Positions 5,615 to 53,040 are shown, numbered from the stretch's first letter. The stretch: 64,000 nt of DNA from an uncultured Chloroflexia bacterium (GCA_963849635.1 CAWKIA010000036.1:81923-145922); one strand, 5' to 3'. A program made the numbers and translations. The notes: generated by a model not told the origin, from the letters alone.

Positions 5615-5662
5615 ACGCTACGGTGCGCGCGGTCGTATCAGCATCCTTCCAAGGGCGTATTC
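5615..5662 (-). promoter_or_regulatory. Regulon promoter element, site A
   Basis: GAATACGCCCTT-GGAA-GGATGC-TGATACGACCGCGCGCACCG-TAGCGT. Confidence 0.8.
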
Positions 5663-5817
5663 CCCCGGGGTGGCTCACCAGCGAGGATGTCCGGGCACGC
5701 GGGACCTGAGTCGCGAGAAAGGTGCCGAATCGCAAGCACAACGTGAAAACACGTGGCCGCGCGACCGAGGCGGCCGCGGCTGCCCTTTCCCGCGTCTTGA
5801 TCTGCACTCAGGATCGA

Positions 5818-6696
5818 TCACATCACGTCGAATACCCCGGCCGATCCCTGCACGGCGGCGGGCTGACCCGTCGTCTTGCTGACGGTGAAGACTACGACCC
5901 CGTAGGTGCCAGGCTGGAGATCGAGTGACACCCAGACGGTTTGGCCGGACGAAACCAACGTGCACACGCCGACAACTGGAGCAGTTGCGAGATCGACGGT
6001 GCCCGGTGCAGGAGTAGCCGACGGCCCCTGATTAATGGACTCGACAAACTGCTCGATCGTGGTCCCGTCGGGCAGCTGCATCGCGACAACCGATTGCGGC
6101 GCGGCCGTGATGTTGGAGATTGCCCAGATGGCGGGACCGCTCGATTCCGGGGTTGGTAATCCCTGAAGCGGCCCGTCGCCGATGGTGATGTCCCAAGTCG
6201 CGGTTATATCCGAGGTGGCGATCGGAGTCGCCTCACCGGAGACGGTGAACTGCGTGCTCGGAACGTCTGGAATGCTGGTCCAGACGCCCCAATCGCCAGC
6301 GGTTAGCTCGACGACGGCTTGCGCGGACTCTCCCGCGGCGGCGTACGGACCACCGGCGAAGACGGAGTTGTAAACCCAACTCGGTAGTGCCTCGCCCGCA
6401 TTCGAGATGTTGGCGGAAATTTGGTCGGCCGTCTCCCCAGTGGGAACGATCATGATGTTCGGCCCAGCAGCGTCGGATGGCAGGCTGTTGACGAAGTTAA
6501 CGAGGGTCCAGCCGGCGTTGAGTTCGGCGGGCTCGACGGTGAATCCCGACTCGGTGAGCGTGATGTCGAGCTCTGGCAGATCGAGGCTGGCGAAGGCATT
6601 GCTCTCCTGCGCCAACACCGCTCGACCACGCGAAAGTGAACCAGTCGCGACCAGGGCGAACACGCCCGACGCCTTGATCAACGCTCGGCGATGCAT
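5818..6696 (-). CDS. Tat-exported hypothetical protein with two beta-sandwich (cupredoxin-like) repeats
   Basis: MHRRALIK twin-Arg signal with AVLA cleavage site; repeated ..L.AG.W / L.PG.Y motifs. Confidence 0.7.
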   Translation of the reverse strand: MHRRALIKASGVFALVATGSLSRGRAVLAQESNAFASLDLPELDITLTESGFTVEPAELNAGWTLVNFVNSLPSDAAGPNIMIVPTGETADQISANISNAGEALPSWVYNSVFAGGPYAAAGESAQAVVELTAGDWGVWTSIPDVPSTQFTVSGEATPIATSDITATWDITIGDGPLQGLPTPESSGPAIWAISNITAAPQSVVAMQLPDGTTIEQFVESINQGPSATPAPGTVDLATAPVVGVCTLVSSGQTVWVSLDLQPGTYGVVVFTVSKTTGQPAAVQGSAGVFDVM

Positions 6697-6791
6697 CGGT
6701 TTCCTCCTACGTCAACGCCGCTCTCTACGCGGTGCCGCGCGACTCCTAATCCTCACCTCCGTCCCGCCCATTTGCGTTGTCGAATAGGATG

Positions 6792-6839
6792 AGCATAGGT
6801 ACCGGCCAGGAGTAAGGTCATCCGACAAAGGGCGTATTC
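6792..6839 (-). promoter_or_regulatory. Regulon promoter element, site B
   Basis: GAATACGCCCTT-TGTC-GGATGA-CCTTACTCCTGGCCGGTACC-TATGCT. Confidence 0.8.
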
Positions 6840-7196
6840 ACAGTACGGGGCCTTGTGGACTGCGTCATGGCTTCAATGGCGTCGTCTGGTGTCCGGAACG
6901 CTAAGCCAGTGCTGTTCCGGCGGCACCAGGAGCATGAGTGGAGACGGTCGTTTCTGCCGCGCGCCAGGTCGGCGGTGCCGCACGTAGACTCATGAGAGAC
7001 CTATGATGGAAGTCGGTACGGTGAACGCATAGTCGATGCTGGTTATCGCATTTACGGGCGCCTTGCCTGGGCGCATCAAGAGCGCACTGATCTGCAGACC
7101 CACGATTCGGGCGAGCGCCTGAAAGGCGGCCGAGTCCCCGAGCAAGGGCCCCTCAATCCTCCCTGACGGCAACTCAACCGCGGCGCTGCGAATGGC

Positions 7197-7244
7197 CGAT
7201 GCGTCTTTTGACCGATGCCGCTACGACCCCCGGCCCGGCATCAT
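7197..7244 (+). promoter_or_regulatory. Regulon promoter element, site C
   Basis: CGATGCGTCTTT-TGAC-CGATGC-CGCTACGACCCCCGGCCCGG-CATCAT. Confidence 0.65.
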
Positions 7245-7377
7245 CACGCTGATCGAATTGGAGTAGTTTGGAAAGATTCTAACTTAACTAGAGGCGGCGA
7301 TCTTCGCGGAGCTTCGACTCTCGTCACGAGATGGTTGTGGCGATCTGGACCGTCACCACCGGGTGGATTGGATCACC

Positions 7378-8565
7378 ATGCGCAAGACGGTCACGCCTAT
7401 CGTTGAGTCAGCCTCCGGCCGTCCGCATGCGGTTGGACGAGCTGCGCTTGCGATCGTCGCCAGCGTCGGTATGTTGCTCCTCATCATCAGAACGTGGGAA
7501 GCCCTGGCCCCATACATATTGGGTTTGACTATCGCCTATCTGCTCTTACCGCTGGTCCGTATGTTCGAGTCACGACTTCCCACGCAAGGCCGGCTCGGCC
7601 GTGCGCGCCATGCGATCGCCACAATGCTGACCTTCGTGGTACTGGTGATCTTCGTGGTGATTATGGCCAGAATTCTCCTTGACCCTATCGTCACCCAGAC
7701 AAAGGAAGTCTTCGGGTCGCTCTCAGCGTATTGGAACAGTATTCTCCTGGAGTACCCGACCTTTCGCTCCTGGTATCAGGACGTCGTGCCCTCCAATGTC
7801 CAGGTCTGGGCGCAAGATCATTTCGACGACCTCGGACGAGCGATCATCGAGACTGTCGTCGGCATGCTCAGGTCGCTCGTCACGTCTTTTGGCGGCGTTC
7901 TTAGCGGGTTCCTGGCTCTGGTCATGGTTCCGCTCTTCGTCGTCTACTTCGTCCTCGATTTGGATAGCATCGATACCCGTCTGCGGCGTCAGCTCCCCGC
8001 TGACTGGGCAGACGACGCAGTCGCCGTGGTGTCCATCTTCAACCGTATCTTCGGCTCGTACTCGCGCGGGGTGATCTTCGAGGCCGTCCTCGTTGGTTTC
8101 ATCACCGGGTTCGGGTACTGGGCGATCGGCGTCAATCTCTGGGCCGCCCTGGGGGTGATCGCGTTTGCCGGGGAAATTGTCCCGATCCTCGGACCGTGGA
8201 TCGCCTTCCTTATCTCGTTTCCGGTTATCCTCGCAACCCAGCCGGAAAGGGCGCTCCCGGCGATCGCACTCTTTGGCGTCATCCAACTGCTCGAAGGCTG
8301 GATCCTTGCACCGAGGATCCAGGGACACTCCGTCGATTTCTCCGCCTCCGCGACACTGATCATTCTGGCCATCGGAGGGGCGTTGGGCGGCGGACTTGGC
8401 ATTGTCATCTCCTTGCCAACCGCTGCGATCATCCGCGCCTTTATCGTGTATATAGACCGTCGGCTGTCGGGGATGACGCCGGCCGAGGCGGTCGTCGGCA
8501 TTGTCGCCGAGGTCAAGCCGCCCGCTGACGAAGGCGCACTCGATCTCCAGGAGGAACCACAATGA
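7378..8565 (+). CDS. AI-2E family transporter (UPF0118/PerM)
   Basis: AYLLLPLV, IVPILGPWI and IQLLEGWILAPRIQG motifs; about 8 TMs. Confidence 0.88.
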   Translation: MRKTVTPIVESASGRPHAVGRAALAIVASVGMLLLIIRTWEALAPYILGLTIAYLLLPLVRMFESRLPTQGRLGRARHAIATMLTFVVLVIFVVIMARILLDPIVTQTKEVFGSLSAYWNSILLEYPTFRSWYQDVVPSNVQVWAQDHFDDLGRAIIETVVGMLRSLVTSFGGVLSGFLALVMVPLFVVYFVLDLDSIDTRLRRQLPADWADDAVAVVSIFNRIFGSYSRGVIFEAVLVGFITGFGYWAIGVNLWAALGVIAFAGEIVPILGPWIAFLISFPVILATQPERALPAIALFGVIQLLEGWILAPRIQGHSVDFSASATLIILAIGGALGGGLGIVISLPTAAIIRAFIVYIDRRLSGMTPAEAVVGIVAEVKPPADEGALDLQEEPQ

Positions 8566-9152: not shown

Positions 9153-9614
9153 TTACCGGCGATCGCGGCGACGATCTCGGCGATTCATCCCCGCCACCGA
9201 AACGGGAGAAAGGGGATTGCCAAATGGATCGATAAAGAGCGAGCAGGCACCCGCGCTCGAGGGCAGTGTGCCGTCCAGAACGGTCGCCGCATAACTGAGA
9301 TCCGAACCAGCCAGGACCGGGTCGCTGATCTCTACGACGACGTCGCTCGGGAGAGCCTCACCCTGTCCAACGAACGCTAGCACCGCGTTAGGCGGGTCGG
9401 CCTTAAAGCTGTTTTCCCCGTCGTCCCACACCGAAACCAGCTGAGACGTGTGGATGTGACCGACTACTCGTTGCGGGCGATCGCTGAAGAAGAGCGTCGA
9501 CTCGCCGACGTTCTTTAGGATGAGGCGACCGTCGACCACCTCGGCGGCCGGTGCCACCTGTACGAACATCGCGTCAATTGCCCGGAGTTGCTCGTTTAGT
9601 TCGCTGTCTGTCAC
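9153..9614 (-). CDS. Conserved-looking hypothetical protein with Arg-rich C-terminus
   Basis: RBS GAGGAG before GTG; motifs MFVQ, TLFFSDRPQRVVGH, F.ADPPNA, CSLFIDP. Confidence 0.75.
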   Translation of the reverse strand: MTDSELNEQLRAIDAMFVQVAPAAEVVDGRLILKNVGESTLFFSDRPQRVVGHIHTSQLVSVWDDGENSFKADPPNAVLAFVGQGEALPSDVVVEISDPVLAGSDLSYAATVLDGTLPSSAGACSLFIDPFGNPLSPVSVAGMNRRDRRRDRR

Positions 9615-9747: not shown

Positions 9748-9795
9748 ATGATCGGAGACAGGCGGTCGTAGTGTCGTCCCGCGAAAGGAGTATCC
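9748..9795 (-). promoter_or_regulatory. Regulon promoter element, site D
   Basis: GGATACTCCTTT-CGCG-GGACGA-CACTACGACCGCCTGTCTCC-GATCAT. Confidence 0.7.
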
Positions 9796-9987: not shown

Positions 9988-10299
9988 CTACAGTTTGCCC
10001 TTCGCCATCTCGGCCGACCATGACGCGGACCTGGCCAATTCGCGGAGTTCTTCGGCCCCGTGGTTGTGCCCGTCGTGGGGACGCTTGAAGAACAGGGTTA
10101 TGGAATTGCTGTCGGGTCGTCCGGGGGAGTTCACCGATACGAGTTCCCACTGCTTTCCGCCCATTGCCCCCAACATGAGGTCGAGCGCGCCCTTATGCGC
10201 GTCGTGATGCGCCACTTGGTCAGGACCTGCGTACTTAACGTCGATCCTCTCCTGCTCGTCGTCCTGGGTGACGACCGCGTACTCCCATGGATGGGTCAT
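9988..10299 (-). CDS. Small hypothetical protein (DUF4177-like)
   Basis: WEY...G...WELVSV...FFKRP pattern; RBS GAAGGA. Confidence 0.65.
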   Translation of the reverse strand: MTHPWEYAVVTQDDEQERIDVKYAGPDQVAHHDAHKGALDLMLGAMGGKQWELVSVNSPGRPDSNSITLFFKRPHDGHNHGAEELRELARSASWSAEMAKGKL

Positions 10300-10364: not shown

Positions 10365-11017
10365 CTAAATGGCCCCTATTAGCCCGCCGGCGATTGCACC
10401 GATAACCGCGCCTTCGTCTCCGAGGATGGCCCCTCCGATCGCGGCGCCAGCTAGAGCGCCGACGATTCCGGCCTTGACACGATCCGAGAAGGTTGTGTCG
10501 TCGGCCACGGGAGACGCCGCCTCATCGGAGGACGATCGCACGTTTCGAACGACAACTGCCAAGACGATGGCGGCGATCGTCGCCGCTACCGAACTCTCGT
10601 CGTCTCGTTCTTCTGAAAATCGGCGACGATGTCTTGGATCTGCTCGAGCTTCGTCCGGCCGTCACTCTCGCTGCTGGCCACATCGACGATCTGCTGGAGC
10701 GCGGTTCCTTCTTCTTCGGTGATGTTCTGTTGCTCTTTGAGCTGTGCCAGGTAGTCCTTCGCGGCTTGGGCAAGTTCCTCAGCGGTCTGGGCGCGTATCG
10801 TGACGATCACCGGAACCAGTGCGGAAAACAATTCCGCGGCGAGGCGGGCTCGTTCGGGCCCAGACAGCCCCTCGCCCGTTGGTTCCTCTGTGGCATCTTG
10901 CGCTGCCGTCACCGCAGCGGTCAGGCCTATAGCCGCAATCCCGCTGGCCGCGCCGCCCATCAAGGCCGCGCGACGCGTCAGCGCAACGGTCATCGGTTCC
11001 TGCAGTATGTTTCTCAC
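10365..11017 (-). pseudogene. Tat-signal protein with C-terminal glycine zipper, split by one frameshift near 10604
   Basis: ORF 10586-11017 (TRRAALMGG signal) continues in another frame as DDESSVAATIAAIVLAVV into ORF 10365-10562. Confidence 0.65.
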
Positions 11018-11133
11018 GGTTTATCTCCTGGGTGTCGCAATCCTGCCGGAACGCGGTCTTGGGTGTCCGTTGGTTTGCCCCTCCTTCCTGGTATCTCCAC
11101 AAGCCGCTCATGTGCTCGTGTCGCCACGGGTTG

Positions 11134-11403
11134 TCATGCTACGGCCGCTCCAAACAGGTCATAGAAATTCCTGTCACACGGGACAAGGTCGGGATTGGCG
11201 GCGACAAACGATTCAATCTGACTGGCGGTTTCCGCTTTCTCCGTGAAAAGGACGTTGATGCCGACCGGCAGACGCTCATCGACTGCACGGATCGACGCGG
11301 CGTGCTGAACGACGCCGGAATTGCCGTCTGCGGGGCCTCGGGCGTAGAGGCGCCCGTCCTTCAACATCGGTCCAAATGGATCGCATTGGCGCCTTTGTGA
11401 CAA
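11134..11403 (-). pseudogene. Fragment of an M20 family dipeptidase
   Basis: DPF.....DGRLYARGPADG.SG...LPVGINVLF matches the M20 RG.ADDK region but is degenerate, and only about 90 aa remain. Confidence 0.65.
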
Positions 11404-11445: not shown

Positions 11446-11493
11446 AGGTTATCGGTGGTCTGGTCGTAGCATCATCCTCCTAAGGCGGTATTT
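11446..11493 (-). promoter_or_regulatory. Regulon promoter element, site E
   Basis: AAATACCGCCTT-AGGA-GGATGA-TGCTACGACCAGACCACCGA-TAACCT. Confidence 0.78.
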
Positions 11494-11518: not shown

Positions 11519-12157
11519 TCATGAGAGTTGGATGACACCGACGTCTTCTAGCCCACCGAGCGCGAGTTGGATGGCAAGAGCGGCGAGTAGGAAGCCGAAT
11601 ACCATCTCGATGACCAACATGCGGTTCTCGACCAAGTGTTCGCTCACCCGGGTTGCCCAGCGAAACACGACGACGTCGAGCGCCAGCACCGCCACCAGCA
11701 TGAGCACGACCATGGCGATATACTCGATCGACTCTGCCTCCGCCGACGCGGTCACCAGGACCACAATCCCCACCGGATTCAAGAGGTACGGCACGCCAAG
11801 TGGAACGATCGCGAGTTGCATCGGGTCCTCGACTGGCCCCACGTCGAGATCGTCCGGGATATCTCTCCCAAAAACCATACGGATTGCGGTGATAAACAGA
11901 ATAATCCCGCTCGCGATGGAGAGGGCCCCGGTGGAGAAATGCAACAGCCGCGAAAGGAAACCGCCGAGAAGCAGGAGGAAGGCCGCAACGGTGCCCGCGG
12001 TCATCAGCATCTTCCCGAGGACGATACGCTTCCTCGAGTTCGGCATTCCCGCCGTCGCCTTTAGGAACGGCACGAGTGCCAACTTGGGGCCAATGCCGAT
12101 CAGCATTAAGAGGAAGGCGTCAATGACCGAGGTTGCATTGACCGAATCGAAGTCCAT
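11519..12157 (-). CDS. MarC family membrane protein
   Basis: 6 TMs; IASGIILF.TAI.M, LAIVPLGVPYLLNP and FGFLLAALAIQL motifs. Confidence 0.85.
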   Translation of the reverse strand: MDFDSVNATSVIDAFLLMLIGIGPKLALVPFLKATAGMPNSRKRIVLGKMLMTAGTVAAFLLLLGGFLSRLLHFSTGALSIASGIILFITAIRMVFGRDIPDDLDVGPVEDPMQLAIVPLGVPYLLNPVGIVVLVTASAEAESIEYIAMVVLMLVAVLALDVVVFRWATRVSEHLVENRMLVIEMVFGFLLAALAIQLALGGLEDVGVIQLS

Positions 12158-12202
12158 CTTGGCCCTCAGCAATCGCTATGGGCGCGACTCTGCCCCGGGA
12201 CG

Positions 12203-13996
12203 CTAGGATTGCTTGAACGCCTCGAACCCGTCGTGCACCGCCAAGAGGGACGAGAGGAGACCGATGTGGGAAAAGGCCTGTGGAAAGTTACCAAGCAATC
12301 GCTGCGAGGTCGGATCGTATTCCTCGCTCAAGAGCCCCACGTCGTTTTGCAGGGCGAGTAATGCGGCGAGATGCTGGTGCGCCTCCTCCGTGCGCCCGAC
12401 CGCGGCGAGCGCGTTGACGAGCCAGAACGAACAAATGAGAAATGCGCCTTCGGTGCCGGCAAGACCATCCACGCCCTCTTCCGTCGAGTAGCGCGACACG
12501 AACGGCCCCGCCGCGAGTTCGCGCATCACTGCGTCGACCGTCCCGAGCACGCGCGGATCATCGTTTGGGAGGAAACCACTGCCCGGAATCAGCAGCAGGC
12601 TTGCATCAAGCGCCTCGCTACCGTAGTACTGGACGAACGTGTTGCGCTCGGCATCGAAGCCGTGCGCGCAGATGTCGTCGTGAATCGCTTTCCTGAGCTG
12701 CTGCCAGCGCTCGGCGGGCACCTCCCGACCGGTCAATTCCGCGAGCTTCAGCGCGCGGTCGACGGCGTACCAGGCCGAGAACTTCGAATACGTGAAGTGT
12801 TGCTGTGCGCCACGGACCTCCCAAATTCCCTCGTCGGGCTCGCGCCAGCGACGCTCGACTATGTCGATGATCGCTTGGAGGTTCAGTCCCGGGGACTTCG
12901 CGGCATCTTCCCGTGGTCGGACTCCAGCCAGCGCTGCGTTATAGACCCCCGCGATCACCTCGCCGTAGATATCGAGCTGAAATTGGTCGCTGGCGGCGTT
13001 GCCGGTCCGAACCGGCCGCGATCCTTCATAGCCAGCCAGCCAGGGCAGCTCGAACTCTGTTAGCCGGTGCTCGCCGCCGATCCCATACATGATCTGTAGC
13101 TGCGACGGGTCCCCCGCGACCGCCCGCCGCAGCCAGGCGCCGAGGGCGATGGCTTCTTCCGTATATCCGAGTCGCGCAAGCGCCGCGACGGTGAAGGAGC
13201 CGTCGCGCAACCAGCAGAATCGATAGTCCCAGTTGCGAACGCCGCCGATCTCTTCCGGCAAGGAGGTTGTGGCAGCTGCCACGATCCCGCCGGTCGGCGC
13301 GTAGGTGAGTGCCTTCAGCGTGATCAACGACCGGAGGACGGTCTCGCGATGGGGTCCCTCATAGGCACACCGTCCCGACCACTCTCGCCACCACTTCTCG
13401 GTCCTGTCTACCGCCGCGGTGCAGTCGGCTTGGTCGGGCACATCCTCATGCGAAGGGAACCAGACCAGCCGGAATTCAGCCTCCTCACCCGCCGCGATGG
13501 AGAACGCTGCCGAAATGGAGGCGTCGGCAACGTCGAGCTCCACGGACGATTGGAGGAAGAGTGCCTCCGGACCGGCCAAGGAGACGATGCCATCGTTAGC
13601 CGGGCGGACGAGTGGGATACGCCGACCGTAATCGAACCGCCCATTCAGCTGGAGGGACATCGGCACGCGTCCGCGCAGGCCCTGCACGAGACGGATCACT
13701 TCGGGGTATCCACTTCGAGGCGGCATGCAGTCGACGATTCGGACCGCGCCGTCCGGCGTCTCGAACTCGGTTTCCAGGACAAGGGTACCGGGTCGATACC
13801 GGCGATCCACCCGCTGGCTGTCCGAGATGGGAGCAATCTGCCAGCGCCCGTTCTGCTCGTCGCCGAGGAGTGCCGCGAAGCAGGCGGCGGAGTCGAAACG
13901 AGGCAGGCAGAGCCAATCGATTGAGCCGTTGTTGCCGACGAGCGCAACGGACCCTGTATCGCCGATGATCGCGTAGTCTTCGATGCGCAGCCCCAT
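12203..13996 (-). CDS. Glycoside hydrolase family 15 (trehalase/glucoamylase-like)
   Basis: IEDYAIIGD, GSIDWLCLPRFDS, AAATTSLPE.IGGVRNWDYRFCWLRD, GLLSEEYD and GNFPQAFSH motifs. Confidence 0.93.
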   Translation of the reverse strand: MGLRIEDYAIIGDTGSVALVGNNGSIDWLCLPRFDSAACFAALLGDEQNGRWQIAPISDSQRVDRRYRPGTLVLETEFETPDGAVRIVDCMPPRSGYPEVIRLVQGLRGRVPMSLQLNGRFDYGRRIPLVRPANDGIVSLAGPEALFLQSSVELDVADASISAAFSIAAGEEAEFRLVWFPSHEDVPDQADCTAAVDRTEKWWREWSGRCAYEGPHRETVLRSLITLKALTYAPTGGIVAAATTSLPEEIGGVRNWDYRFCWLRDGSFTVAALARLGYTEEAIALGAWLRRAVAGDPSQLQIMYGIGGEHRLTEFELPWLAGYEGSRPVRTGNAASDQFQLDIYGEVIAGVYNAALAGVRPREDAAKSPGLNLQAIIDIVERRWREPDEGIWEVRGAQQHFTYSKFSAWYAVDRALKLAELTGREVPAERWQQLRKAIHDDICAHGFDAERNTFVQYYGSEALDASLLLIPGSGFLPNDDPRVLGTVDAVMRELAAGPFVSRYSTEEGVDGLAGTEGAFLICSFWLVNALAAVGRTEEAHQHLAALLALQNDVGLLSEEYDPTSQRLLGNFPQAFSHIGLLSSLLAVHDGFEAFKQS

Positions 13997-14066: not shown

Positions 14067-15602
14067 CTATGGCTTCGCCTGGGGCTGTCCTTGGGCCGGC
14101 ATGACGTCGCGCGGGATTAGGAGGGCGGCGCCGAGCCCGATAAGGCCGATGACGGCCATGACGATGAGGGCGGCGCGATACCCCTCGTTGCCCACGAGCG
14201 CCGTCGAGACGAGCACCGAACCGACCAACGCCGTTCCGAGGGAGGAGCCGAGATTGGATGCGCTGCGAGAAAGACCGGAAATCTCGCCTTGGTCCTGCTC
14301 GGGCCAACTTGACTGGACGACGTTGACCGACGACGTCAACATGACCCCGATTCCGAACCCCGCTAGGAACAGGCCGGGAAGGAAGGTCCAGATGTCTGAG
14401 GTCGCATCGGCGATCGCCAGGAGGCACAGGATGCCGGCCACGAAGCAGATGAATCCGCCTCGGATCAGGAAGACCTGTGGGCGACGGCGGGCGAGTCTGC
14501 CGGCGATGCCGGACGACAGGATGATGCCCACGGTCGAGGCGGTCAGAACCAGGCCGGTTTCGATCGCGCTGTAACCGCGGACGGTTTGGAGAAAGACGGA
14601 GACGACGAAGAAGCTGCCCTGCAACGTCAACCACTGGATGTTCTGCGTGACCAAGCCTAGGTTGGAGGCCCGATTGCGGAACAACCGTGTGGAGAGCAAG
14701 GGCTCTTTCCCCGCTCGCTCTCGCGACCGGATATGGAAGTAGAACCATGCCAGGAAGATGGCGCCGATTGCGACCAGCGGCCAGACCGGGGAGATGCCGC
14801 CTTCCTCGATGATCACGGTGTCGCCGATCTTAAAATCCTTCGTCGCCGTCAGCCATCCGTATTCGCCGGACTGCAGGATCCCCATCACCACGAACGCAAG
14901 ACCCGCCGCCGACAGGATGGCTCCCGTGACGTCGAAAACGCTCTTCGTGCCTTTATTGCCGGTGTATTGGCGGCCCATGACGAGGATGCCGCCCACCACC
15001 AGAACCTGCACGATGAAGGACGCACGCCAACTGATGGCGCTGGTGATGAGACCGCCGATCAACGGTCCGGCCGCGGACCCCAATCCGGCCGCAGCGCTGA
15101 CGATGCCGAAAGCTTTGGCGCGAGATTCGAGATCACTGAACACGACCGTGAGCAAGATATAGATGGGAGGGATCATGAGGGCGGAGCCGACGCCTTGCAT
15201 GAAGGAGTAGCCGACGAAAAGCATGGTGAGCCCCTGGGACAACGATGCCAGCAACGCACCGAGCCCATAGATGACCAGACCCAGCATGAAGCACCGCTTG
15301 CGGCCCCAGATATCGGTCAACTTGCTGCCGGGGATCATCAGCGCGGCCATCGTCAGGGTGAAGAGCGTGATCGCCGTCTGAACCCCGTGGGTCGTTGTTT
15401 CGAGATCCTCGGCAATGCTGGTGATGGCCACGTTCATGTTGGAGCCAGCGTAGCTGGCAATGAACTGGGTCAACGCCAATGGGAAGACGATCGAGGAGAT
15501 GACGGCGGCGAGGGTGCCGCGACCCTTCAGGGTCGCGGCTTGCTTGCCGTTCGGGGGTGGTTTCTGGCCAGACCGACGTGCCGATTGGCCCTTTTTCGCC
15601 AT
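14067..15602 (-). CDS. MFS transporter, 14-TM DHA2-like
   Basis: GSKLTDIWGRKR motif A and GPLIGGL motif C. Confidence 0.9.
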   Translation of the reverse strand: MAKKGQSARRSGQKPPPNGKQAATLKGRGTLAAVISSIVFPLALTQFIASYAGSNMNVAITSIAEDLETTTHGVQTAITLFTLTMAALMIPGSKLTDIWGRKRCFMLGLVIYGLGALLASLSQGLTMLFVGYSFMQGVGSALMIPPIYILLTVVFSDLESRAKAFGIVSAAAGLGSAAGPLIGGLITSAISWRASFIVQVLVVGGILVMGRQYTGNKGTKSVFDVTGAILSAAGLAFVVMGILQSGEYGWLTATKDFKIGDTVIIEEGGISPVWPLVAIGAIFLAWFYFHIRSRERAGKEPLLSTRLFRNRASNLGLVTQNIQWLTLQGSFFVVSVFLQTVRGYSAIETGLVLTASTVGIILSSGIAGRLARRRPQVFLIRGGFICFVAGILCLLAIADATSDIWTFLPGLFLAGFGIGVMLTSSVNVVQSSWPEQDQGEISGLSRSASNLGSSLGTALVGSVLVSTALVGNEGYRAALIVMAVIGLIGLGAALLIPRDVMPAQGQPQAKP

Positions 15603-40854: not shown

Positions 40855-40870
40855 GCTGCCTCCCTCTCCT

Positions 40871-44163: not shown

Positions 44164-46861
44164 GTGGTGAGCGCCGAGCTTGCGTCCATGCCGGTCTCTC
44201 AACCCGAGGCGATGCCGGCGCGTCACGGCCGTCGAATGTTAACCACGAAAATCAGCGCACCCCGGTTGCGCCCCGATCTCGTTAATCGGGCACGGCTGAT
44301 CGAGGCGATTTCCTTCGCGGACGTTCCATTGACGGTGGTCTGCGGTCCCGCTGGCTTTGGCAAGTCGACGCTCGTGAGCCAATGGATCATCAAGTCCGGG
44401 ACGCCGACCGCGTGGGCCCAACTTGACGCCTACGACAACGATCCCTGGGGCTTCTTCCACCTCATCGCGTCCGCCATCGATTCCATCGATCCCGACATCG
44501 CGTCCAGCACCCTCCAGTTGCTTGAATCACCGCTCGACGCCGGTTCGACTCAGGCCGTCATCCAATCGCTCATGGAAAGTCTCTCGGCGACGACTCGCCC
44601 ATTTGCGCTCGTGCTCGACGACTATCAAGTCATCACTTCACCCGTTATTCACGACGTCATTAGGGATCTCCTGTTGTATGTGCCGCCGACCATGCGCGTC
44701 TTCGTCATCAGCCGAACCGATCCTCCCTTGCATCTGGCCAGGCTGCGTGGACGCCACCAGGTGCTCGAGTTGGGGCAAGACGACCTACGGTTCACGGACG
44801 ATGAGGCGCTCGAACTTCTCCAAAAGACGAATAACCTCCAGGTGACCGCCGGCGATGTGGACTCCCTCAACGGCCACGCGGAAGGTTGGGTCGCAGGTCT
44901 CCAACTGGTCGCATACATGTTGCATGCACAGTCCCGTGAGGGCATTCGCCAGTTCGTCGCGGAATTCAGCGGGAGCGTCCGTTCGATCGAGGACTACCTC
45001 TGGGAAGAGGTCATCGGACGGCAGAGCGTCGCGTTCCAGGATTTCTTGCTGCGCACCTCGATCCTCGACCGCTTCACCGCTCCACTTTGCACTGCCGTCA
45101 CCGGGATCGAGGACAGCGGCGCAGCGATCCAGCATCTGGAGCGGTCCAACCTGTTCGTTGTGCCGTTGGACCATCTCGGCCACTGGTATCGCTATCACCA
45201 CCTGTTCGCGGACGTCCTCCGGGATCGTCTCGCTCAGGTACTGCCCGAGGAACAGCTGAACGATCTGCACCGGCGCGCATCCGTGTGGCTGGAAGACCAT
45301 GACTTCATCGAGCAGGCTGCTCGGCACGCGGTGGCCGGCCGTGACTGGGACCGGGTGGCCACGCTGCTCGAACAGATTTGCGGCGAGCTCTATGCACAGG
45401 ACCGAGCGGCGGCCCTATGCGCATGGATACAAGGCGTTCCTCGGGCGACACTTGTGCAGCATCCAAAGCTCGCATTTTGGTTGGCCTATGCGCTCAGCCG
45501 GATGGGTCACTTCCGACAGGCCGCCGCACCGCTCCGGATTGCCGAGCAAGCATGGGTCCTCAGCAACGACCACTCGCACTTGGGCGATCTCCGGATCGTG
45601 CAAGCGCTTCGGAGTGCCACTCAGGACACCGGTCATGCGGTCGAATATGCAAAGGAGGCGTTCGACCTGCTGGCCAATGACGGAACCGGGAGCCAGGCGG
45701 TCGCTGGGATTGCCCTTGCCGCGGCCTATCTTCACGATGGCGATATGGACGCGGCCAAAATGACCTATTCCGTTGTGCGGTCAACTGTCGACAGCGAACC
45801 GCGCGAATGGGTCCAACTTGCCGAGATGAATGGGTCCGCGTATGTCCTTGCTAAACAGGGGAATCTCTTGGAAGCCGCGGTACTGTCTCGACGCGTTATC
45901 AAGCGCGCCGACGAGCGGCATCTGATGCAGGCGCAGTTCGCACACGGCGCACTCGGTAGCGTCTGCGTCGAGTGGAACATGATCGACGAGGGCGTGCGAC
46001 ACCTTCGTAGTGCGCAGGCACTGGCAGAGCAAACACACATGGCGATAGGCCGGCATGGGGTGAGTCTGTCACTGGCGCGCGCGTTTTGGGCCTGGGGCGA
46101 CGTCGAGGCCGCCTTCGACGAGGTTGAGCGGGCGATAGAATTGGCCAATGAGATGGAATCCCCGCAGGGGATCAGAGATGCCCGCGCCCGCCAGGCGCAG
46201 TTCTGGTTGGCCCAGGGACGCGTTGCGTTGGCCCACCGCTGGGCGGACAGCAACGACCTGGATCCGTACCTGCCCCCGACCTACGGTCGCCAAAGCGAAT
46301 ACTTGACGTTCGCGCGCCTCTTGATCGTCGACGACCTCCCCGAATTGGCGCTGGCTATCCTCAACGCGGCCGCCGATCTGGCAGAAACTCAGGGACGGTT
46401 CGCCGACCTTCTTCAGATTTTGCTGCTCAGCGCCCTGGCGCACAAAGTCGCGGGCGATCAAACCGCGGCGATGCTCGCATTCCACCGGTCACTCGCCATC
46501 GGTGAATCTGGGGGATTTGCACGAATCATTGTGGACGAGGGCGCGTCGGTCGCCCCCCTCTTGCGACATGCCACCACCCGCGGTGCCTTCCGCGACTACG
46601 CGCAACGGCTGCTCACACGCGATCGAAGGGGCCCCGACCGGCGCGATCGCGGTCCAAGGGGACACGATTGAGCAGCTCAGCGAGCGCGAGGTGGAGGTGC
46701 TTCGGCTGGTTTCGGCAGGGTTGCCCAACCGGGATATCGGGAACCATCTATTCATTACCGAGAAGACGGTCAAGAAACACCTGAGCAATATCCTTGGCAA
46801 GCTGCAATCAGCTAACCGTACGCAGGCCGTGGACCAGGCGCGTCGCTTGGGCTGGTTATAA
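44164..46861 (+). pseudogene. MalT-like STAND ATPase-TPR-LuxR transcriptional regulator with a +1 frameshift near 46615, before the HTH
   Basis: Walker A GPAGFGKS, Walker B LVLDDY, ISR.DP, EGW.AGLQL and WYRYHHLF; the LuxR HTH LSEREVEVL...G..N..I...LFI.E.TVK.H is in a different frame (46502-46861). Confidence 0.88.
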
Positions 46862-46986: not shown

Positions 46987-47421
46987 CTAAACGGACGTCC
47001 TCATCACCGGGCTGGATGAATGCGCACTGATCGACGTGTCGGCGATCGCCGCCAAGAGCGTTGCGGCGAGGTACGGCTTGAGGACCACCCTCACGCCCAG
47101 GGTGCCCAGATGGTGCCGCAGGGCGTCGGCCTCGCTGGCGGCCCCAGTGCAGAGCACGATCGAGGTCGCGACGGTCTTGGGGTCCAGTCGCAATAACTGC
47201 AGGAGCGACCACCCGTTGTCGTCTCCTGTCCACTTGTAGTCGAGAACGATAAGGTTGGGCGCGAGCCGCTTGATCTCTTCGCGGTCGTGGTTGTAGTAGG
47301 GGAGGAGAGAGACGACGTATCCCGCCGCTTCTAGGATGTCGTTCACTTCGAGGAGGAGCGATTGGTCCGTGCTAATGACCAACACGTGGCGCGGTGCCGT
47401 TCGGTCCACGTCGTTCTCCAT
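46987..47421 (-). CDS. Single-domain response regulator (atypical receiver)
   Basis: P.LIVLD, GW.LLQ.LR.DP.T...IVLCT and KP motifs; acidic pocket degenerate (VIST). Confidence 0.8.
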   Translation of the reverse strand: MENDVDRTAPRHVLVISTDQSLLLEVNDILEAAGYVVSLLPYYNHDREEIKRLAPNLIVLDYKWTGDDNGWSLLQLLRLDPKTVATSIVLCTGAASEADALRHHLGTLGVRVVLKPYLAATLLAAIADTSISAHSSSPVMRTSV

Positions 47422-47654
47422 CGAATTCGAACCGGACCACATTGTTCCAGATTCCAACGTCAACTGTACTACATGATGCAACGGCTCAGATGGATGAAGG
47501 TACGCCCTAGACGAACTGAAACTCCTACCTTAATCACGGGACTAACGACTGCGCCACACGCTAACTGGGCTATACCAGCCCACTCGTGTAGCGATGATCA
47601 TAGAAGCTGGCCCCTTCGACGTTGCCGCTCCTGCAGTTCGGCCACCTAAGCGGC

Positions 47655-47701
47655 GAATACGCCCTCGGTCGGATGACGCTACACCCACCTATCGATAGCC
47701 T
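47655..47701 (+). promoter_or_regulatory. Regulon promoter element, site K
   Basis: GAATACGCCCTC-GGTC-GGATGA-CGCTACACCCACCTATCGA(19)-TAGCCT. Confidence 0.78.
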
Positions 47702-47927: not shown

Positions 47928-48049
47928 CGGTCACCTCCCGCACGAGGTCAGGTTGATTTTCCGGCTGGAGTGTCTTCAGCAAAGGCCGCAGACCGCCGAA
48001 CGCGCGTTGACATACGGCTTGACCGTTCAAGCGTGGCATGGAGGGAACG

Positions 48050-48814
48050 ATGGCGGAGCAGGCGAAAGCGACGTTGCAGAAGGGTATTCCGTGGCGACGC
48101 GGTCTCGCCTGGTGGGTCGTCGGACTTGAGGGACTCCTTCTCCTGGTCGCCGGCATCTATGTCGTCGCCGCGCCGGACAACGCGAAGACCGCGGTTCGCG
48201 TCATCATCGGCGCCTTCATCCTGGCAAACAGTGTCGGATCCGTGATGGCCAGCTTTCGGCCGGCAGCGCTTTCGAATCCTATCACGCCATATAAAACGCT
48301 TTCGGCCGGGTCTGGTCTGACGGTCGGGACAATTGTCGTTCTCCAGCCCTTGACCGAAAACATCACCGACAACGCCGCTCGGGTCATCCTTGCCCTGGGG
48401 CTCTTGGTATTCGGCGTCATCGGTCTCGCCGGCATTTACATGACGCGAGCAACCGGCGGGTGGCCCCGCGGACCGATCGTGACTGCCGGGGTGAGCGTCC
48501 TCTTCTCGATTTTGATGTTCTACAACGTCAGCAACGAAACGCTCGACATGCGCTGGTTTGGCTATGCAGCGCTCGCCGTCGGCGTGCTGATCTGCGGATA
48601 CGCAGGTGCTCTCTACAAAGCTGGGCAGGTCACGCCGGAGGTCGCGGCCACGCAGCCAGATCCAGCCATAGAAAGCGTGGCAGAAGACCCCGCACCCGCC
48701 TCCGCGGAGGCGCCGCGGCCACCGGCCCCCCTTTCGCCGGCACCGACGGCCGCCGAGCCGCAATCCGTCGTTGTCCCATCGAGCACCAGCCCATCGGACT
48801 CGATGGACGAGTGA
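48050..48814 (+). CDS. HdeD/DUF308-like 6-TM membrane protein with Pro-rich tail
   Basis: WW....EG.LLL.AGI.....P repeat pattern; GGAGG RBS. Confidence 0.7.
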   Translation: MAEQAKATLQKGIPWRRGLAWWVVGLEGLLLLVAGIYVVAAPDNAKTAVRVIIGAFILANSVGSVMASFRPAALSNPITPYKTLSAGSGLTVGTIVVLQPLTENITDNAARVILALGLLVFGVIGLAGIYMTRATGGWPRGPIVTAGVSVLFSILMFYNVSNETLDMRWFGYAALAVGVLICGYAGALYKAGQVTPEVAATQPDPAIESVAEDPAPASAEAPRPPAPLSPAPTAAEPQSVVVPSSTSPSDSMDE

Positions 48815-48818
48815 TCAG

Positions 48819-48854: not shown

Positions 48855-48918
48855 AAGCTCGCCGTATCTGACCGCCTCATCAGATCCTTCCGCGCAGCCT
48901 AATCCGTCGTATCGACCC

Positions 48919-48966
48919 GAATACTCCCTTGGACTCATGCAGGTAAACCCATCCCACACATACCGT
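48919..48966 (+). promoter_or_regulatory. Regulon promoter element, site L
   Basis: GAATACTCCCTT-GGAC-TCATGC-AGGTAAACCCATCCCACACA-TACCGT. Confidence 0.72.
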
Positions 48967-49104
48967 CATGCTGGGGCTCGTGCCCGATCCCTTCAACCGG
49001 CGTCACGTGAAGGAGGAGCTAGGCAAGACATCAAGGGCGGCAATCATCCAGGCCAATGACGATTTCGGTCTCCGGAGTCTAGACAGCACCAAGGAGAGGT
49101 CACG

Positions 49105-49866
49105 ATGACACTTGAGCGACGCATATCTGGGAGGCGTGGACGCGGCGTAACCGCGCTGGTGATCGTCGCGGCGCTTGCGCTGATGATGGTGCCGGCGGGC
49201 CTTCGTCAAGCGGCCGCCCAAGACAGCTCGACCACCGTTGATGTCCAGACGCGGGCTGTCTTCCTGCATGCCTCACCGGATCTGGGCGAGGTCGAGGTTG
49301 CCCTCAATTGGGACACTCAGCTTGAAGAGTTCGGGTACGGCGACCTGAGTGACTGGGTCGATGTTCCGCCGGGAGCCGTGGAAGTAACGATCAACGCCGA
49401 ACGAAGAGGCATCAACTACATGGTCTTCGACGCCGTTTACCCGGCGCCGGCTGGAAACGACTACTTCATGGTCATCACTGATCAACTCGTCGCCGGTGGT
49501 GCCTTTGACCGAAGCCCAATCCCCGACAACAGCGCCCGAGTCCAGGTCATGCAGGGATCGGTCAGCCTGCCGGCGGTGAACGTCGTGGCGACGGGTTCGG
49601 ACGTCGAGTGGGCCACGCAGCTTCAGTATCCGCGGTCATCGGAAGCCACGGTGGTGCCAGCCGGAAGCTACAACCTCGAGGTCAGGCTCGCCGATTCCGG
49701 TGAGACGGTACTCACTGTTCCCGGCGTCTCGTTGAGCGGCGATACCGTCAACGAGCTGGTCATCATAGGCAACGCGAACGACAGCGACCATCCACTCGAG
49801 ATCAAGGTGCTGTCGAACACCACCCAACCGCGAGACGGTGACAGCGCGGGAACCCCGCCCGCCTAG
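49105..49866 (+). CDS. Secreted DUF4397 domain protein
   Basis: Signal peptide; HASPD...V.V, VPPG and VPAG.Y.L.VR repeats; AAGGAGAGG RBS. Confidence 0.82.
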   Translation: MTLERRISGRRGRGVTALVIVAALALMMVPAGLRQAAAQDSSTTVDVQTRAVFLHASPDLGEVEVALNWDTQLEEFGYGDLSDWVDVPPGAVEVTINAERRGINYMVFDAVYPAPAGNDYFMVITDQLVAGGAFDRSPIPDNSARVQVMQGSVSLPAVNVVATGSDVEWATQLQYPRSSEATVVPAGSYNLEVRLADSGETVLTVPGVSLSGDTVNELVIIGNANDSDHPLEIKVLSNTTQPRDGDSAGTPPA

Positions 49867-50051: not shown

Positions 50052-50777
50052 ATGTCTCGCATTGCAGTTGTTACCGCCGTTTTGCTCACGATGGCGCTGA
50101 TGGTGACCGGCGCCCTGCGGGCTACCGCCCAAGATGCGACTCCGGATGCGACTCCGGAAGCGACTCCTACCGCCGGGGCTACCATCACTCCACCGGGTGG
50201 AGACTACGCGGACATGGCGGCTAGCTGGGGCCAATGGCTCTTCTCGTTCCCGGCCGCGGTCAGCCCAGCGTCTGACGCCACCGGCATCGCGTGCGGTCTC
50301 GGTCAAAGCGGATCCACCTTCTTCCTGGCTCCTTCAGCCGTTGGTGCAGGGGCGATTACCCGGGCTTGCACGATCCTCGAAGGGACGAGCGTGCTGGTTC
50401 CGGTGATCGCGGTGGACTGCTCTACGGCTGAAGCCGCCCCCTTCTACGGTGACAGTGCCGACACGCTAGCATCGTGCGCCATGACCAACGCGGACGCGAT
50501 TACCGGAGGCAACGCGTCGATCGACGGCACCGATGTCGCCGATATCGCCTCGTACCGGGTGCAGAGTCCTGTGTTCGGCGTCGTCCTGCCTGAAGGGAAT
50601 ATGCTCAACGCGCCGGGCGGGGTTGCCTCGGTCGTCGTGGACGGCGCGTTCCTCAACGTCGAGGGTCTGGCTGCCGGGGAGCACACAATCTCCTATGGCG
50701 GCACGTACGAGAGCGGTGGCGCCATCGATATCACCTACAACATCACCGTGGTGGCGGCCCCGGTAGCGTCGAGCTAA
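50052..50777 (+). CDS. Secreted hypothetical protein with conserved Cys pattern
   Basis: Signal peptide, DATPDATPEATP linker, W.QW..S.P, C..GQSG..FFLA and R.CTI motifs. Confidence 0.75.
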   Translation: MSRIAVVTAVLLTMALMVTGALRATAQDATPDATPEATPTAGATITPPGGDYADMAASWGQWLFSFPAAVSPASDATGIACGLGQSGSTFFLAPSAVGAGAITRACTILEGTSVLVPVIAVDCSTAEAAPFYGDSADTLASCAMTNADAITGGNASIDGTDVADIASYRVQSPVFGVVLPEGNMLNAPGGVASVVVDGAFLNVEGLAAGEHTISYGGTYESGGAIDITYNITVVAAPVASS

Positions 50778-51110
50778 TCCAGATCGGAACCTGCGTCCGT
50801 TGCGGGACGTACTTGCCACCGGCAGCATTCCGCGACGGACGCGCGGCGGCGGATGAACCGCCGTCCATAGTGAGGCGACATCCGGGAGAAGAAGTCGGCA
50901 AGCACAGTGCGGGCAGGAAGCCACTGTCGCCGATGAGCACGCGACGGGATCAAGAGCGAACGACCGTCGCGTGATGACTAACGAAGACGTGCGGAAGATT
51001 GATCGACCACGCGAGCAAGAGGCTGCACCGCGATCTGCCCGAGCGCTGTGGCCTCCGTCGCACCACGTTTGACAGCGGCGATCCGTCAGGATGATCGAAG
51101 GGCACCTGAG

Positions 51111-51626
51111 ATGAGCAAGTCGGCGCACATGCTCGCAGCCATCTTCCCCGATCGGGAACATGCCAAGGTCATCCTGGACATGCTGGAGCAGATGCACCAC
51201 GCGCAGAGGGTCAAACTGGTCGACGCCGCCCTGGTGACCAAGGACGACCAGGGCAAGTTGCAGATCGAAGAAACGAAGGAACTCACCACAAGGAAGGGTG
51301 CGCGACGCGGGGCAGTCATCATGGGCTCGATGGCGATTCTCTTCCCGCCCACGATCATCGCCTCCGCGGTCGCCGGTGGCGTCATCGGCGCCGTCGCCGG
51401 CAGACTGCGCGATTCGGGGATCAAGAACAAGCAGATGCGCGAACTCGCTGAGCGCCTCCAACCCGGTGAAGCCATCGTGGTCGCATTGGCCGAGGATGAG
51501 TCGGTGCTGAGGGTGCAGTCGGCTCTCGAAGGTTACGAGGGGCAACTCGTCATCGCCGAGATCGACGAAGAGGCCATGATCGAGCTCCACAAAGCGGCGG
51601 TGATGAAGGCAGGGACGGAAGGCTGA
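51111..51626 (+). CDS. DUF1269-like protein (paralogue 3)
   Basis: DAALV.KD..GKL.I.E.KELT..KG.RRGA and L.PG; closest to 4646-5236. Confidence 0.82.
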   Translation: MSKSAHMLAAIFPDREHAKVILDMLEQMHHAQRVKLVDAALVTKDDQGKLQIEETKELTTRKGARRGAVIMGSMAILFPPTIIASAVAGGVIGAVAGRLRDSGIKNKQMRELAERLQPGEAIVVALAEDESVLRVQSALEGYEGQLVIAEIDEEAMIELHKAAVMKAGTEG

Positions 51627-51671
51627 TCGTTGTGTCAATCGCGGCCAACGCTCGGAAAGAGGATAGCGACG

Positions 51672-52361
51672 GTGGTCCAGTACGAAATTCATATCGGCAG
51701 CCACGTCGAAGCGAGCGACGGGAAGTCGCTCGGCTCCGTCCAGCGTCTCATTGTCCATCCGGACGCGAAACAGGTGAACGGCTTTCTGCTTGGCAAAGGC
51801 CACTTAACCGCGAACCGGATCATTGCCTTGGGCCAGGTTGAATCCGCGGGTCCCCACGGCGTCGTGCTTAAGCTCGATGCCCACCAGGCCGAACAGGCGC
51901 CGGTCGTCATCCATGAGCAAATGCTCAGGGCTCCAGGCAATCTGACGTACCAGGGAAGATGGGGAGCACAGGCGACCTTTGAGGGTACGGGAGAGCATTG
52001 GGTCATGCGGTCCCCCGAGGCCGATTTTTCCACGATCGATTCCAAATCGCTGTTCTCTCCAGCACCGATTGGCACGATCGAAGCGCAGAACATCGACGAT
52101 CTGCCGGAAGATAGCGTCCTCCTCGGCAAGCGGACCGAGGTCGTCGGCTCTGATGGACGGAAGGTCGGTCACGTCGACGGGATCACCGTTGACTCTGATC
52201 GACGGATCATTGACTTTGTGGCCAAGGCAGGGCACGTGTTTTCGCACGACGACGTGCGCGTCCCAATGTCGTCCGTGGCGGGGATCAGTCATGTGCACGT
52301 TCGCCTCGATGTCACTGCTGAGTCCGCTGCACATGCGTCGGGTCTTGACCTCGATCCGTAA
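51672..52361 (+). CDS. Tandem PRC-barrel domain protein
   Basis: Two V...DG..(L/V)G.V..(L/I).V repeats. Confidence 0.8.
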   Translation: MVQYEIHIGSHVEASDGKSLGSVQRLIVHPDAKQVNGFLLGKGHLTANRIIALGQVESAGPHGVVLKLDAHQAEQAPVVIHEQMLRAPGNLTYQGRWGAQATFEGTGEHWVMRSPEADFSTIDSKSLFSPAPIGTIEAQNIDDLPEDSVLLGKRTEVVGSDGRKVGHVDGITVDSDRRIIDFVAKAGHVFSHDDVRVPMSSVAGISHVHVRLDVTAESAAHASGLDLDP

Positions 52362-52473
52362 TCCCGGGTGTCGCGGCCCTTCGGGTGCCTTATGGCATGT
52401 TGCGGGCGTTCGGCGACGTCGTCTCCACCTGAGACGAATCCCTGCCCGCTCGCTCCGATAAAGGGAACAAGTC

Positions 52474-53037
52474 ATGGCATCCGATCGCTCATCGCGGCTC
52501 GTCAGACTCAGCCGGTCTGACTTCGCAATCGAAAATTTCAATGAGGATGTGCGAGGGCGACACGTGCTCACGATCGACGGTGACCGGATCGGCACCGTCG
52601 AGGATCTACTGATCGACAGGGAAGATCAGACGGTCCGCTTTCTGCAAGTCGGAGCCGGCGGATTCCTTGGCTTCGGTGAACACACTTGGTTGATTCCGAT
52701 CGAGGCCGTGCAAGAAGTCGACGAGTATCACGTTCTCGTTGATCAGTCACGCGAGCACGTCGCTGCCGCGCCGCTCTACAACCCTCACGTGGTGCAGACG
52801 GATCCGTATCTGAACGACGTCTACGAGCATTACGGCTATCGGCCGCCCTGGGTTCCGGGCGCCGAGACATACGTGAACACCTCCTGCCTGGTCTCAACAG
52901 GATGTTCCTTGGGCCCAAGGTTTAGTGACCATCCGGAGATTCCCCACCGATATCTGCGGCCGGTTCACGCTTTCTGTACCGCTTCCACGACCGAATACGC
53001 CCTTAGTCCGATGTCATTACAACCCTCCTCCTTATAA
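52474..53037 (+). CDS. PRC-barrel domain protein (3' end doubtful)
   Basis: DVRG..V...DG..IG.VEDL.ID, GGFLG.GE...IP, AP.Y.P and Y..YGY motifs; the tail after about aa 132 is not family-like. Confidence 0.8.
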   Translation: MASDRSSRLVRLSRSDFAIENFNEDVRGRHVLTIDGDRIGTVEDLLIDREDQTVRFLQVGAGGFLGFGEHTWLIPIEAVQEVDEYHVLVDQSREHVAAAPLYNPHVVQTDPYLNDVYEHYGYRPPWVPGAETYVNTSCLVSTGCSLGPRFSDHPEIPHRYLRPVHAFCTASTTEYALSPMSLQPSSL

Positions 53038-53040
53038 TCT
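52993..53040 (+). promoter_or_regulatory. Regulon promoter element, site M
   Basis: GAATACGCCCTT-AGTC-CGATGT-CATTACAACCCTCCTCCTTA-TAATCT (overlapping TATAAT). Confidence 0.8.

Follow-up and report, generated by a model that had tools for sequence, protein, structure and literature searches.

The subject of this analysis is a stretch of 64,000 nucleotides from an uncultured Chloroflexia bacterium (GCA_963849635.1, CAWKIA010000036.1:81923-145922), here called the window, in which a promoter element of about 48 bp precedes at least 14 operons whose genes concern membranes, stress and energy reserves. From the form and distribution of this element we consider it probable that these are island promoters activated by a MalT-like STAND-LuxR (LAL) protein and read by a housekeeping-type sigma factor. 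Positions are those of the window, which corresponds to C36:81923-145922 of genome G000 (7.46 Mb, 46 contigs), unless a contig or locus is named.

A repeated element before many operons

The first-pass annotation of this DNA had reported 13 copies of the element, and on checking the window sequence all of them were present at the coordinates and on the strands given. The 13 -10-like hexamers also read as listed, including the one at 47655(+), which lies 1 nt closer than at the other sites. The set was real but incomplete, since a 14th strong site is found at 17456-17503(+) and more lie beyond the window. The copies had been said to point at the next gene or operon, and every strong window site does have a same-strand gene downstream. 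The sites and the genes behind them are:

5615-5662 (-), promoter element, 43 bits: heads 5318-5611, 4646-5236 (DUF1269/glycine zipper) and 3706-4434
6792-6839 (-), promoter element, 38 bits: heads 5818-6696 (no family)
7197-7244 (+), promoter element, 34 bits: heads 7363-8565 (AI-2E transporter)
9748-9795 (-), promoter element, 35 bits: heads 9153-9614 (no family; conserved in the clusters of relatives)
11446-11493 (-), promoter element, 36 bits: nearest called same-strand gene 10586-11017, then 9988-10299
15834-15881 (-), promoter element, 42 bits: heads MFS 14067-15602, GH15/TREH_N 12203-13996 and MarC 11519-12172
17456-17503 (+), 14th promoter element, 32 bits: heads a 77-aa membrane protein 17631-17864 and a bestrophin-like gene 17938-18729
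17336-17369 (-), weak degenerate core, uncertain, 18-20 bits: points at 15987-17102 (Exo_endo_phos)
24682-24729 (-), promoter element, 35 bits: heads an amino-acid permease 23126-24460 and a KAS III-like gene 20812-22845
32874-32921 (-), promoter element, 37 bits: heads the arginine deiminase operon, with arginine deiminase (ADI) 31378-32772, a DcuC-type carrier 29351-30868, OTC 28282-29295, a Na/H antiporter 26685-28238, carbamate kinase 25745-26749 and MscS 24786-25658
41739-41786 (-), promoter element, 42 bits: heads 41251-41646, a P-type ATPase 38083-40890 and PPK2 37179-38045; back to back with 41872(+)
41872-41919 (+), promoter element, weakest of the 13, 18.6 bits when left out of the matrix: heads DUF1269 41990-42472 and possibly the response regulator and LAL genes too
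47655-47701 (+), promoter element, 43 bits, the site with the closer -10: heads 48038-48814
48919-48966 (+), promoter element, 35 bits: heads DUF4397 49105-49866, 50052-50777, DUF1269 51048-51626 and PRC-barrel 51630-53037
52993-53040 (+), promoter element, 44 bits, overlapping the final 45 nt of the open reading frame (ORF) 52474-53037: heads 53222-53506, LOR-like 53882-54442, DUF1269/DUF6325 54517-55044 and then further same-strand genes

At 11446(-) a plus-strand ORF is called at 11032-11400, and the minus-strand ORF 11134-11403 is the alternative first gene. The upstream half of the 41872(+) site reads GGCTACGACC.

A position weight matrix built from the 13 sites was used to scan the window and the whole genome. 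The leave-one-out scores of these sites range from 18.6 to 39.4 bits, and the window holds 14 matches of at least 20 bits, against 1 in total over 50 dinucleotide-preserving shuffles. The genome contains 25 matches of at least 23 bits, separated by a clear gap from the next one at 18.2 bits. These strong sites are clustered: C36 has 17 at 77.7-146.4 kb, C18 has seven, five of which fall within 333-352 kb, and C27 has one. Relative to coding DNA, 18 of the 25 cores fall fully outside called ORFs, while 3 overlap one partially and 4 fully, as judged with a crude GC3-based caller that marked 80% of the site-bearing contigs as coding.

Divergent back-to-back pairs of sites are frequent, such as 41753-41786(-)/41872(+), C36:77713(-)/77787(+) and those in loci L043, L050, L055, L056 and others. 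Counted by hand, 5 of 14 pairs have 37-40 bp between their cores and the rest have 61, 61, 71, 73, 85, 93, 95, 160 and 164 bp, lengths that may hint at helical phasing. The segment 17456-18729, comprising promoter, 77-aa membrane protein and bestrophin-like gene, is present a second time at C18:350387-351705 of G000 with proteins 97-98% identical, and looks, from this similarity, like a recent duplication that included the motif. The G+C content of the window is 62.7%, compared with 62.9-68.9% for the contigs (most about 65-67%), a mild hint of a separate history of the island.

To describe the anatomy of the element we used 89 distinct sites scoring at least 26 bits, taken from G000 and from loci of its relatives. 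The core spans 34 nt, GAATRCGCCCTT-nGnCn-GATGM-nnn-TACGACC, and is followed 10 unconserved nt later by a sigma-70-type -10 hexamer, (T/C)AnnnT. The consensus first proposed, RAATACGCCCTT-N4-SGATGM, proved too strict, being exact at only 2 of the 13 sites, 5615(-) and 6792(-), and off by 1-5 positions at the other 11. The -10 does stand at a fixed distance, but the 20-nt spacer proposed with that consensus includes a third conserved block, TACGACC, which occupies motif positions 26-32. Counted over the 89 sites, the first block is conserved at C0 (69), G1 (72), A2 (81), A3 (73), T4 (88), A5 (61), C6 (85), C8 (77), C9 (89), T11 (86), T12 (81) and G14 (89). The second block follows with G18 (74), A19 (80), T20 (81) and G21 (87), and the third with T26 (89), A27 (83), C28 (83), A30 (71), C31 (89) and C32 (69). 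Ten unconserved bases separate C32 from position 43, and the hexamer itself shows T43 in 45 sites (C in 26), A44 in 75 and T48 in 73. A44 and T48 occupy a fixed position and correspond to the -11 A and the -7 T, the two bases most critical to a sigma-70-type -10 hexamer, and no TTGACA-like -35 hexamer was found in the 89 aligned sites. The commonest base at position 55 is G (41 of 89). If position 55, which lies 7 nt after the hexamer, is the transcription start, as predicted here, the GAATRCGCCCTT-nG block would cover about -54 to -41, GATGM about -37 to -33 and TACGACC about -29 to -23, and the 3' end of GGATGM would lie 33 nt from this predicted, unmapped +1. At the C18:795259 site the predicted +1 coincides exactly with a GTG start codon, which would be the arrangement of a leaderless mRNA.

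These features bear on two other explanations of the repeats. The first is that they have no regulatory role and are dispersed repeats, debris of a mobile element or a motif of transcribed RNA, a notion to which the many similar copies in one region lend some colour. RNA data consisted of soil and rhizosphere metatranscriptome contigs (runs X12, X18, X19 and X20) from related organisms, most pieces being 90-95% alike, which cannot show transcription starts; they cover several regulon genes, and two of them, matching 48904-49499 and 52851-53324, cross a copy of the motif, a point that could be set against promoter function but that we weighed as neutral. However, about 20 of the 34 core positions are conserved while the flanks are unrelated between copies, every strong copy faces a gene, and copies keep their place before orthologous genes in other genera, so that we practically discount a non-regulatory origin. 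As an RNA element the motif was rejected: Rfam gave 0 matches in the window at the gathering threshold and RNAalifold 0 pairs on the 14 copies. A search of public RNA runs gave shares of at most 0.25 for all holders, and no habitat was inferred from it.

The second explanation dispenses with an activator site: a dedicated alternative sigma factor, with its gene elsewhere, would itself recognise the 34-nt core. In our estimate this has a slim chance of being right. It would account for the length and asymmetry of the core, for its fixed spacing from the start region and for the lack of a canonical -35. Yet the hexamer at that fixed distance is of the housekeeping type, and neither island holds a Sigma70_r2 gene: among 41 Sigma70_r2 matches in G000 none lies in C36:70-148 kb or C18:330-355 kb, and the sole one on C36 is at 1.6 kb. 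Moreover, the homologous regulon of Actinoplanes needs a LAL activator, according to PMC7567727. Sigma-54, ECF and MerR-type promoters were also considered and rejected against their consensus sequences, as the sites lack a GG-N10-GC, an AAC/CGT pair with ECF spacing and a spacer dyad.

The LAL gene and the distribution of the motif

We now return to activator-dependent promoters. The regulators encoded in the window are:

44164-46861 (+): MalT-like STAND-LuxR (LAL) gene, the proposed activator, with P-loop NTPase, TPR_MalT and LuxR/GerE helix-turn-helix (HTH)
43000-43728 (+): NarL-type response regulator (REC and GerE by Pfam)
33079-35358 (-): PAS-HisKA_3 histidine kinase, a possible partner of the response regulator
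46987-47481: REC-only protein

The LAL ORF runs from 44164 to 46671 and the GerE HTH (69.4 bits) lies at 46619-46861. Its TPR region matches PF17874 TPR_MalT with 141.3 bits (cut-off 45), the Pfam AAA_16 and AAA_22 matches stay below their cut-offs (22.6 and 22.8 bits), and the Walker A (G-x-G-K-S-T) and Walker B (D-D) motifs are invariant in 9 LAL orthologs. One ortholog, that of G062, aligns end to end with MalT of E. coli MG1655 at 26% identity over 912 columns (E = 9e-53). Judged by sequence, the LAL is a true relative of MalT. G000 also carries an intact paralog, 52% identical, at C18:493443-495836.

To follow motif and regulator together, a sequence-only covariance model of the 14 window sites was run over the genomes of relatives. 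In a first sample the motif was present in 3 of 41 genomes: G000 and G001, which belong to the same genus and gave 23 matches each, and G019 with 16. An order-wide sample gave 8 of 151, all in family f1 (7 of 66 besides G000), versus 0 of 84 in four other families, and a sample of that family gave 12 of 91, so that the motif was found in one Chloroflexia family only. A LAL of at least 42% identity occurs in 8 of these 91 genomes (G000, G001, G019, G062, G161, G163, G164 and G137), and all 8 have the motif, compared with 4 of the other 83 (G115, G133, G146 and G148); G007, G011, G143 and G176 were counted among the genomes with neither motif nor close LAL. In G133 and G148 a LAL 31-33% identical stands directly beside a site. 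The LAL gene lies inside or adjoining motif clusters in G000, G001 (C31, C9), G019 (C566, C391), G062 (C19), G161 (C4, C7), G163 (C9) and G164 (C151), and of the window's regulators it alone has a homolog in the clusters of every one of the six genomes compared.

A search for related loci with a single LAL protein returned none and one with an alignment as query returned 80, of which L061 and L063 contain the motif, with L065 borderline (25.3 bits) and L104 at 18.2 bits. The match at L065:14715(-) lies 2 kb from a LAL 35% identical and may be due to chance or represent a related operator in another phylum. In the Anaerolineae-type loci L115:1-10000 and L135:1-10000 a distant LAL (28-29%) stands divergently beside ADI, OTC, carbamate kinase and a DcuC-type carrier, with PPK2 and a P-type ATPase as well in L135. 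These two loci share a different conserved intergenic sequence, and the link between LAL and ADI may thus be older than the motif.

The same distribution serves to weigh the response regulator at 43000-43728, which could be the activator, together with the kinase at 33079-35358, the LAL being then merely a member of the regulon. Its gene stands beside the LAL gene in the island, downstream of the 41872 site, an order of regulator followed by LAL that recurs in G062 and in G019:C387, and homologs of 45-63% identity occur in G062, G019, G164, G162 and G166. But G001, with 23 sites, has no ortholog of it, the best match there being 38% identical and outside the clusters, and none was found in G161 or G163 either (best E 5.5e-34 and 1.3e-32). 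Conversely, G162 and G166 possess homologs of 45-47% and no motif, and the kinase has an ortholog in the G062 cluster only. We regard this alternative as decidedly improbable. Of the two candidate regulators originally put forward, the HTH at 46680-46861, belonging to the LAL, is thus supported by co-occurrence with the motif, whereas the response regulator is not.

Another arrangement would involve two factors, with the LAL on the GGATGM box and a second protein, for instance another LuxR/NarL-type HTH with its gene elsewhere, on two TACG(C/A)CC heptamers that flank the box; these heptamers may instead be half-sites of the LAL. The direct repeat formed by TACGCCC (positions 4-10) and TACGACC (26-32), 22 bp apart, is the strongest internal similarity of the core (score 6.69 versus a mean of 1.36, sd 1.00, in 462 comparisons), and at 41872(+) both copies read CTACGACC. 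NarL binds heptamers beginning with TAC, and G133 keeps the TAC blocks with a degenerate GGATG box. Nonetheless, no second regulator is kept in the clusters of the six genomes compared, and in G001, which lacks an ortholog of the local NarL-type regulator, TACGACC is fully conserved. We consider two factors unlikely, and activation by the LAL as the one regulator remains the reading that we prefer.

Comparison with MalT and other known systems

The closest precedent is MalT of Actinoplanes sp. SE50/110 (ACSP50_3915), also a LAL. According to PMC7567727, this protein activates 40 of the 51 genes of one region, as shown by deletion and overexpression. Its 17 mapped promoters carry TCATCC-N5-GGATGA over the -35, with the 3' end 34.4 +/- 1.0 nt from the start; the region encodes arginine deiminase, OTC, carbamate kinase, amino-acid permeases and a ThrE exporter, with ppk2 in relatives, and its function is given as unknown (PMC7567727). 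The window resembles this region in several respects. In both, a LAL gene lies inside a region of about 50 genes, one motif covers the -35 of many promoters (17 mapped there, 14 predicted here), and a GGATGA box, GGATGM in the window, stands about 33-34 nt from the start, mapped there and predicted here. The ADI, OTC, carbamate kinase, amino-acid permease, ThrE and PPK2 families of that account are all present in the window, and both regions contain many poorly annotated membrane proteins and are rearranged between relatives. The differences are equally plain. The Chloroflexia element has a single GGATGM, flanked by GAATRCGCCCTT and TACGACC, instead of the palindrome TCATCC-N5-GGATGA; the organisms belong to different phyla and their LALs are only about 30% identical, with a different recognition helix; and start maps and mutants support the Actinoplanes promoters, whereas those described here are predicted from sequence.

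Of 401 genomes in the order of G177, 103 contain the exact palindrome, often clustered, and only a handful contain a reversed control pattern; the Actinoplanes-type MalT operator thus seems, from these counts, to be widespread in that order. In six of these actinobacterial genomes clustered palindromes lie beside homologs, 31-48% identical, of window genes: DUF1269, DUF6325, SHOCT, GH15, 3706-4434, 2214-3578, 41251-41646 and arcA. LAL homologs of 30-32% identity lie by palindrome clusters in two genomes, G314 and G177. A TAnnnT at a fixed distance after the palindromes was seen in 1 of 74 oriented sequences, an uninformative figure in genomes so rich in G+C.

E. coli MalT recognises the box GGGGA(T/G)GAGG, located at about -35 in promoters without a good -35 (quoted in PMC7567727). 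The regulators belong to the same protein family, and in both systems, in the window at a predicted distance, a box resembling GGA(T/G)GA covers the -35 of promoters without a good -35. MalT controls maltodextrin genes through several directly repeated boxes; the Chloroflexia element has one box and two unrelated blocks, and genes for maltose transport were not seen here.

Other regulators offer partial parallels. The closest solved HTH domains are of the LiaR, VraR and NarL type, which do not tell the specificity, and include PDB chains 1zlj and 3c3w, which we take to be DosR/DevR. DosR/DevR, the two-component response regulator of the mycobacterial dormancy regulon, binds a palindrome and is likewise an activator with a LuxR-type HTH whose targets, a few dozen clustered genes, serve survival in the absence of growth, but the two-component regulator of the window does not track the motif. 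The SARPs of Streptomyces, which have an OmpR-type winged helix, bind direct repeats of a heptamer, set whole helical turns apart, and the last of these stands a few bp before the -10. Phased heptamer direct repeats in place of a -35 are thus common to both, but no gene for an OmpR-type winged helix was seen among the window genes scanned.

Several observations weigh against activation by the LAL. The window copy is split by one extra base at about 46617/46618, after the ...QRLLT codons, which places the HTH in another frame, although the HTH is in frame in the 9 orthologs (866-944 aa). The frameshift may be an assembly error or mark a pseudogene and, if real, might leave this copy inactive. 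The recognition helices of the actinobacterial island LALs, TVKAHLRAIYRKL and TVKTHQRAIYHKL, resemble that of MalT, TIKTHIRNLYQKL, while those of the Chloroflexia LALs, TVKKHLSNILGKL, are unlike both; the difference fits a changed operator but is not proof of it. LAL genes are also very numerous, with at least 150 GerE matches in G000. As to the distribution, G115 (5 sites, 84% complete) has no LAL above 32% identity except a 42% fragment at a contig end, the 43% LAL of G137 lies on another contig than its sites, and the Chloroflexia locus L062, with a LAL 47% identical, has no site within 10 kb on either side. The genomes of the family are related, so that the counts are not independent, and the co-occurrence may reflect hitch-hiking in one island. 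Finally, the element departs from a MalT site in some details: the box is weak at its edges (G17 in 39 of 89 sites, A22 in 26, with C22 in 55), a second GGATGA box, whether as direct repeat or as palindrome, is absent from the core, which holds a single GGATG, and TCATCC-N5-GGATGA with up to one mismatch is not enriched in G000 (20 scattered matches, none on C36). Nor do the 80 LAL loci show any enrichment of the palindrome. Separately, we noted that GerE-type HTH genes in G000 exceed 150, many in open frames of 800-1100 aa, indicating a very large expansion of LAL-type genes.

Even so, the fixed -10 in the 89 sites, the co-occurrence with the LAL and the Actinoplanes precedent favour the original proposal of one activator over the -35 of many promoters, with a geometry like that of MalT. 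As had also been suspected, the motif does not correspond to a described operator, none that matches having been found in the literature searched. These would be activator-dependent promoters with a good -10, (T/C)AnnnT, and no proper -35, presumably read by a housekeeping-type sigma factor, in which a 34-bp asymmetric site with three conserved blocks takes the place of the -35. The activator would most likely be the LAL at 44164-46861 or the paralog at C18:493443-495836. The signals of E. coli MalT are ATP and maltotriose; by analogy, the LAL, with ATP and a signal, would assemble on the site, its HTH contacting conserved blocks, and recruit RNA polymerase.

The regulon and its significance

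The regulon would comprise 25 promoters genome-wide, 14 of them within the window. Pfam searches of the window genes show several DUF1269 proteins behind the sites, together with DUF6325, SHOCT, PRC-barrel, DUF4397 and a LOR-like protein, as well as small membrane proteins of no family. The arginine deiminase pathway (ADI, OTC, carbamate kinase and the DcuC-type carrier) is also behind sites, as are PPK2, a P-type ATPase, MscS, bestrophin-like, MFS, AI-2E and MarC proteins, an amino-acid permease and a GH15 enzyme with a trehalase-like N-terminus. The content that we propose for the regulon is thus mostly small membrane proteins (DUF1269, DUF6325, SHOCT, PRC barrel), with the arginine deiminase pathway, PPK2, the P-type ATPase, transporters and GH15 and debranching-type glycosidases, although no site heads the gene of the GDE_C glycosidase at 86-1387. 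The ThrE exporter lies at 60312-61754 in the window, where the run of genes that starts from the 52993(+) site may or may not extend to it. For 10 conserved proteins of no family NCBIfam gave no usable family, and their sequences, read by eye, resemble those of small membrane proteins, not of regulators.

Some genes appear to be fragments: two short bestrophin-like pieces at 18810-19354, a 101-aa ORF at 59594-59899 that covers DcuC positions 287-352, and the 131-aa protein 41251-41646, which has only the first 67 positions of an FGE-sulfatase domain. They are possibly debris of rearrangements within the island.

As for physiology, the gene content, on which this assignment depends, suggests energy reserve, ion balance and membrane stress, and so a stress, starvation or dormancy module. 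We read the island as what corresponds in Chloroflexia to the MalT-activated island, differing from it in the operator; the kind of system is already known. We propose more tentatively, and with doubts that outweigh our confidence, that the LAL gave up an ancestral palindrome for the 34-bp asymmetric, phased site, and that the module is an old and horizontally mobile one for stress or dormancy, common to Actinomycetota and Chloroflexota, in which the operator turned over while the genes stayed. If that were true, a heptamer inside the -35/-10 spacer (-29 to -23), repeating one 22 bp upstream, would be a geometry not known to have been described for LuxR-type or STAND activators.

For uncultured soil Chloroflexota, in which regulation is almost uncharted, the element provides a sharp and testable promoter and operator. 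It would place under one switch about 25 promoters whose genes encode mostly uncharacterised membrane proteins (DUF1269, DUF6325, SHOCT, LOR-like, 77-aa), and the two versions of the operator would form a natural pair for learning how a STAND-LuxR activator changes its operator. The gene content held in common with the Actinoplanes MalT region suggests that the module spans two phyla and would be worth functional study.

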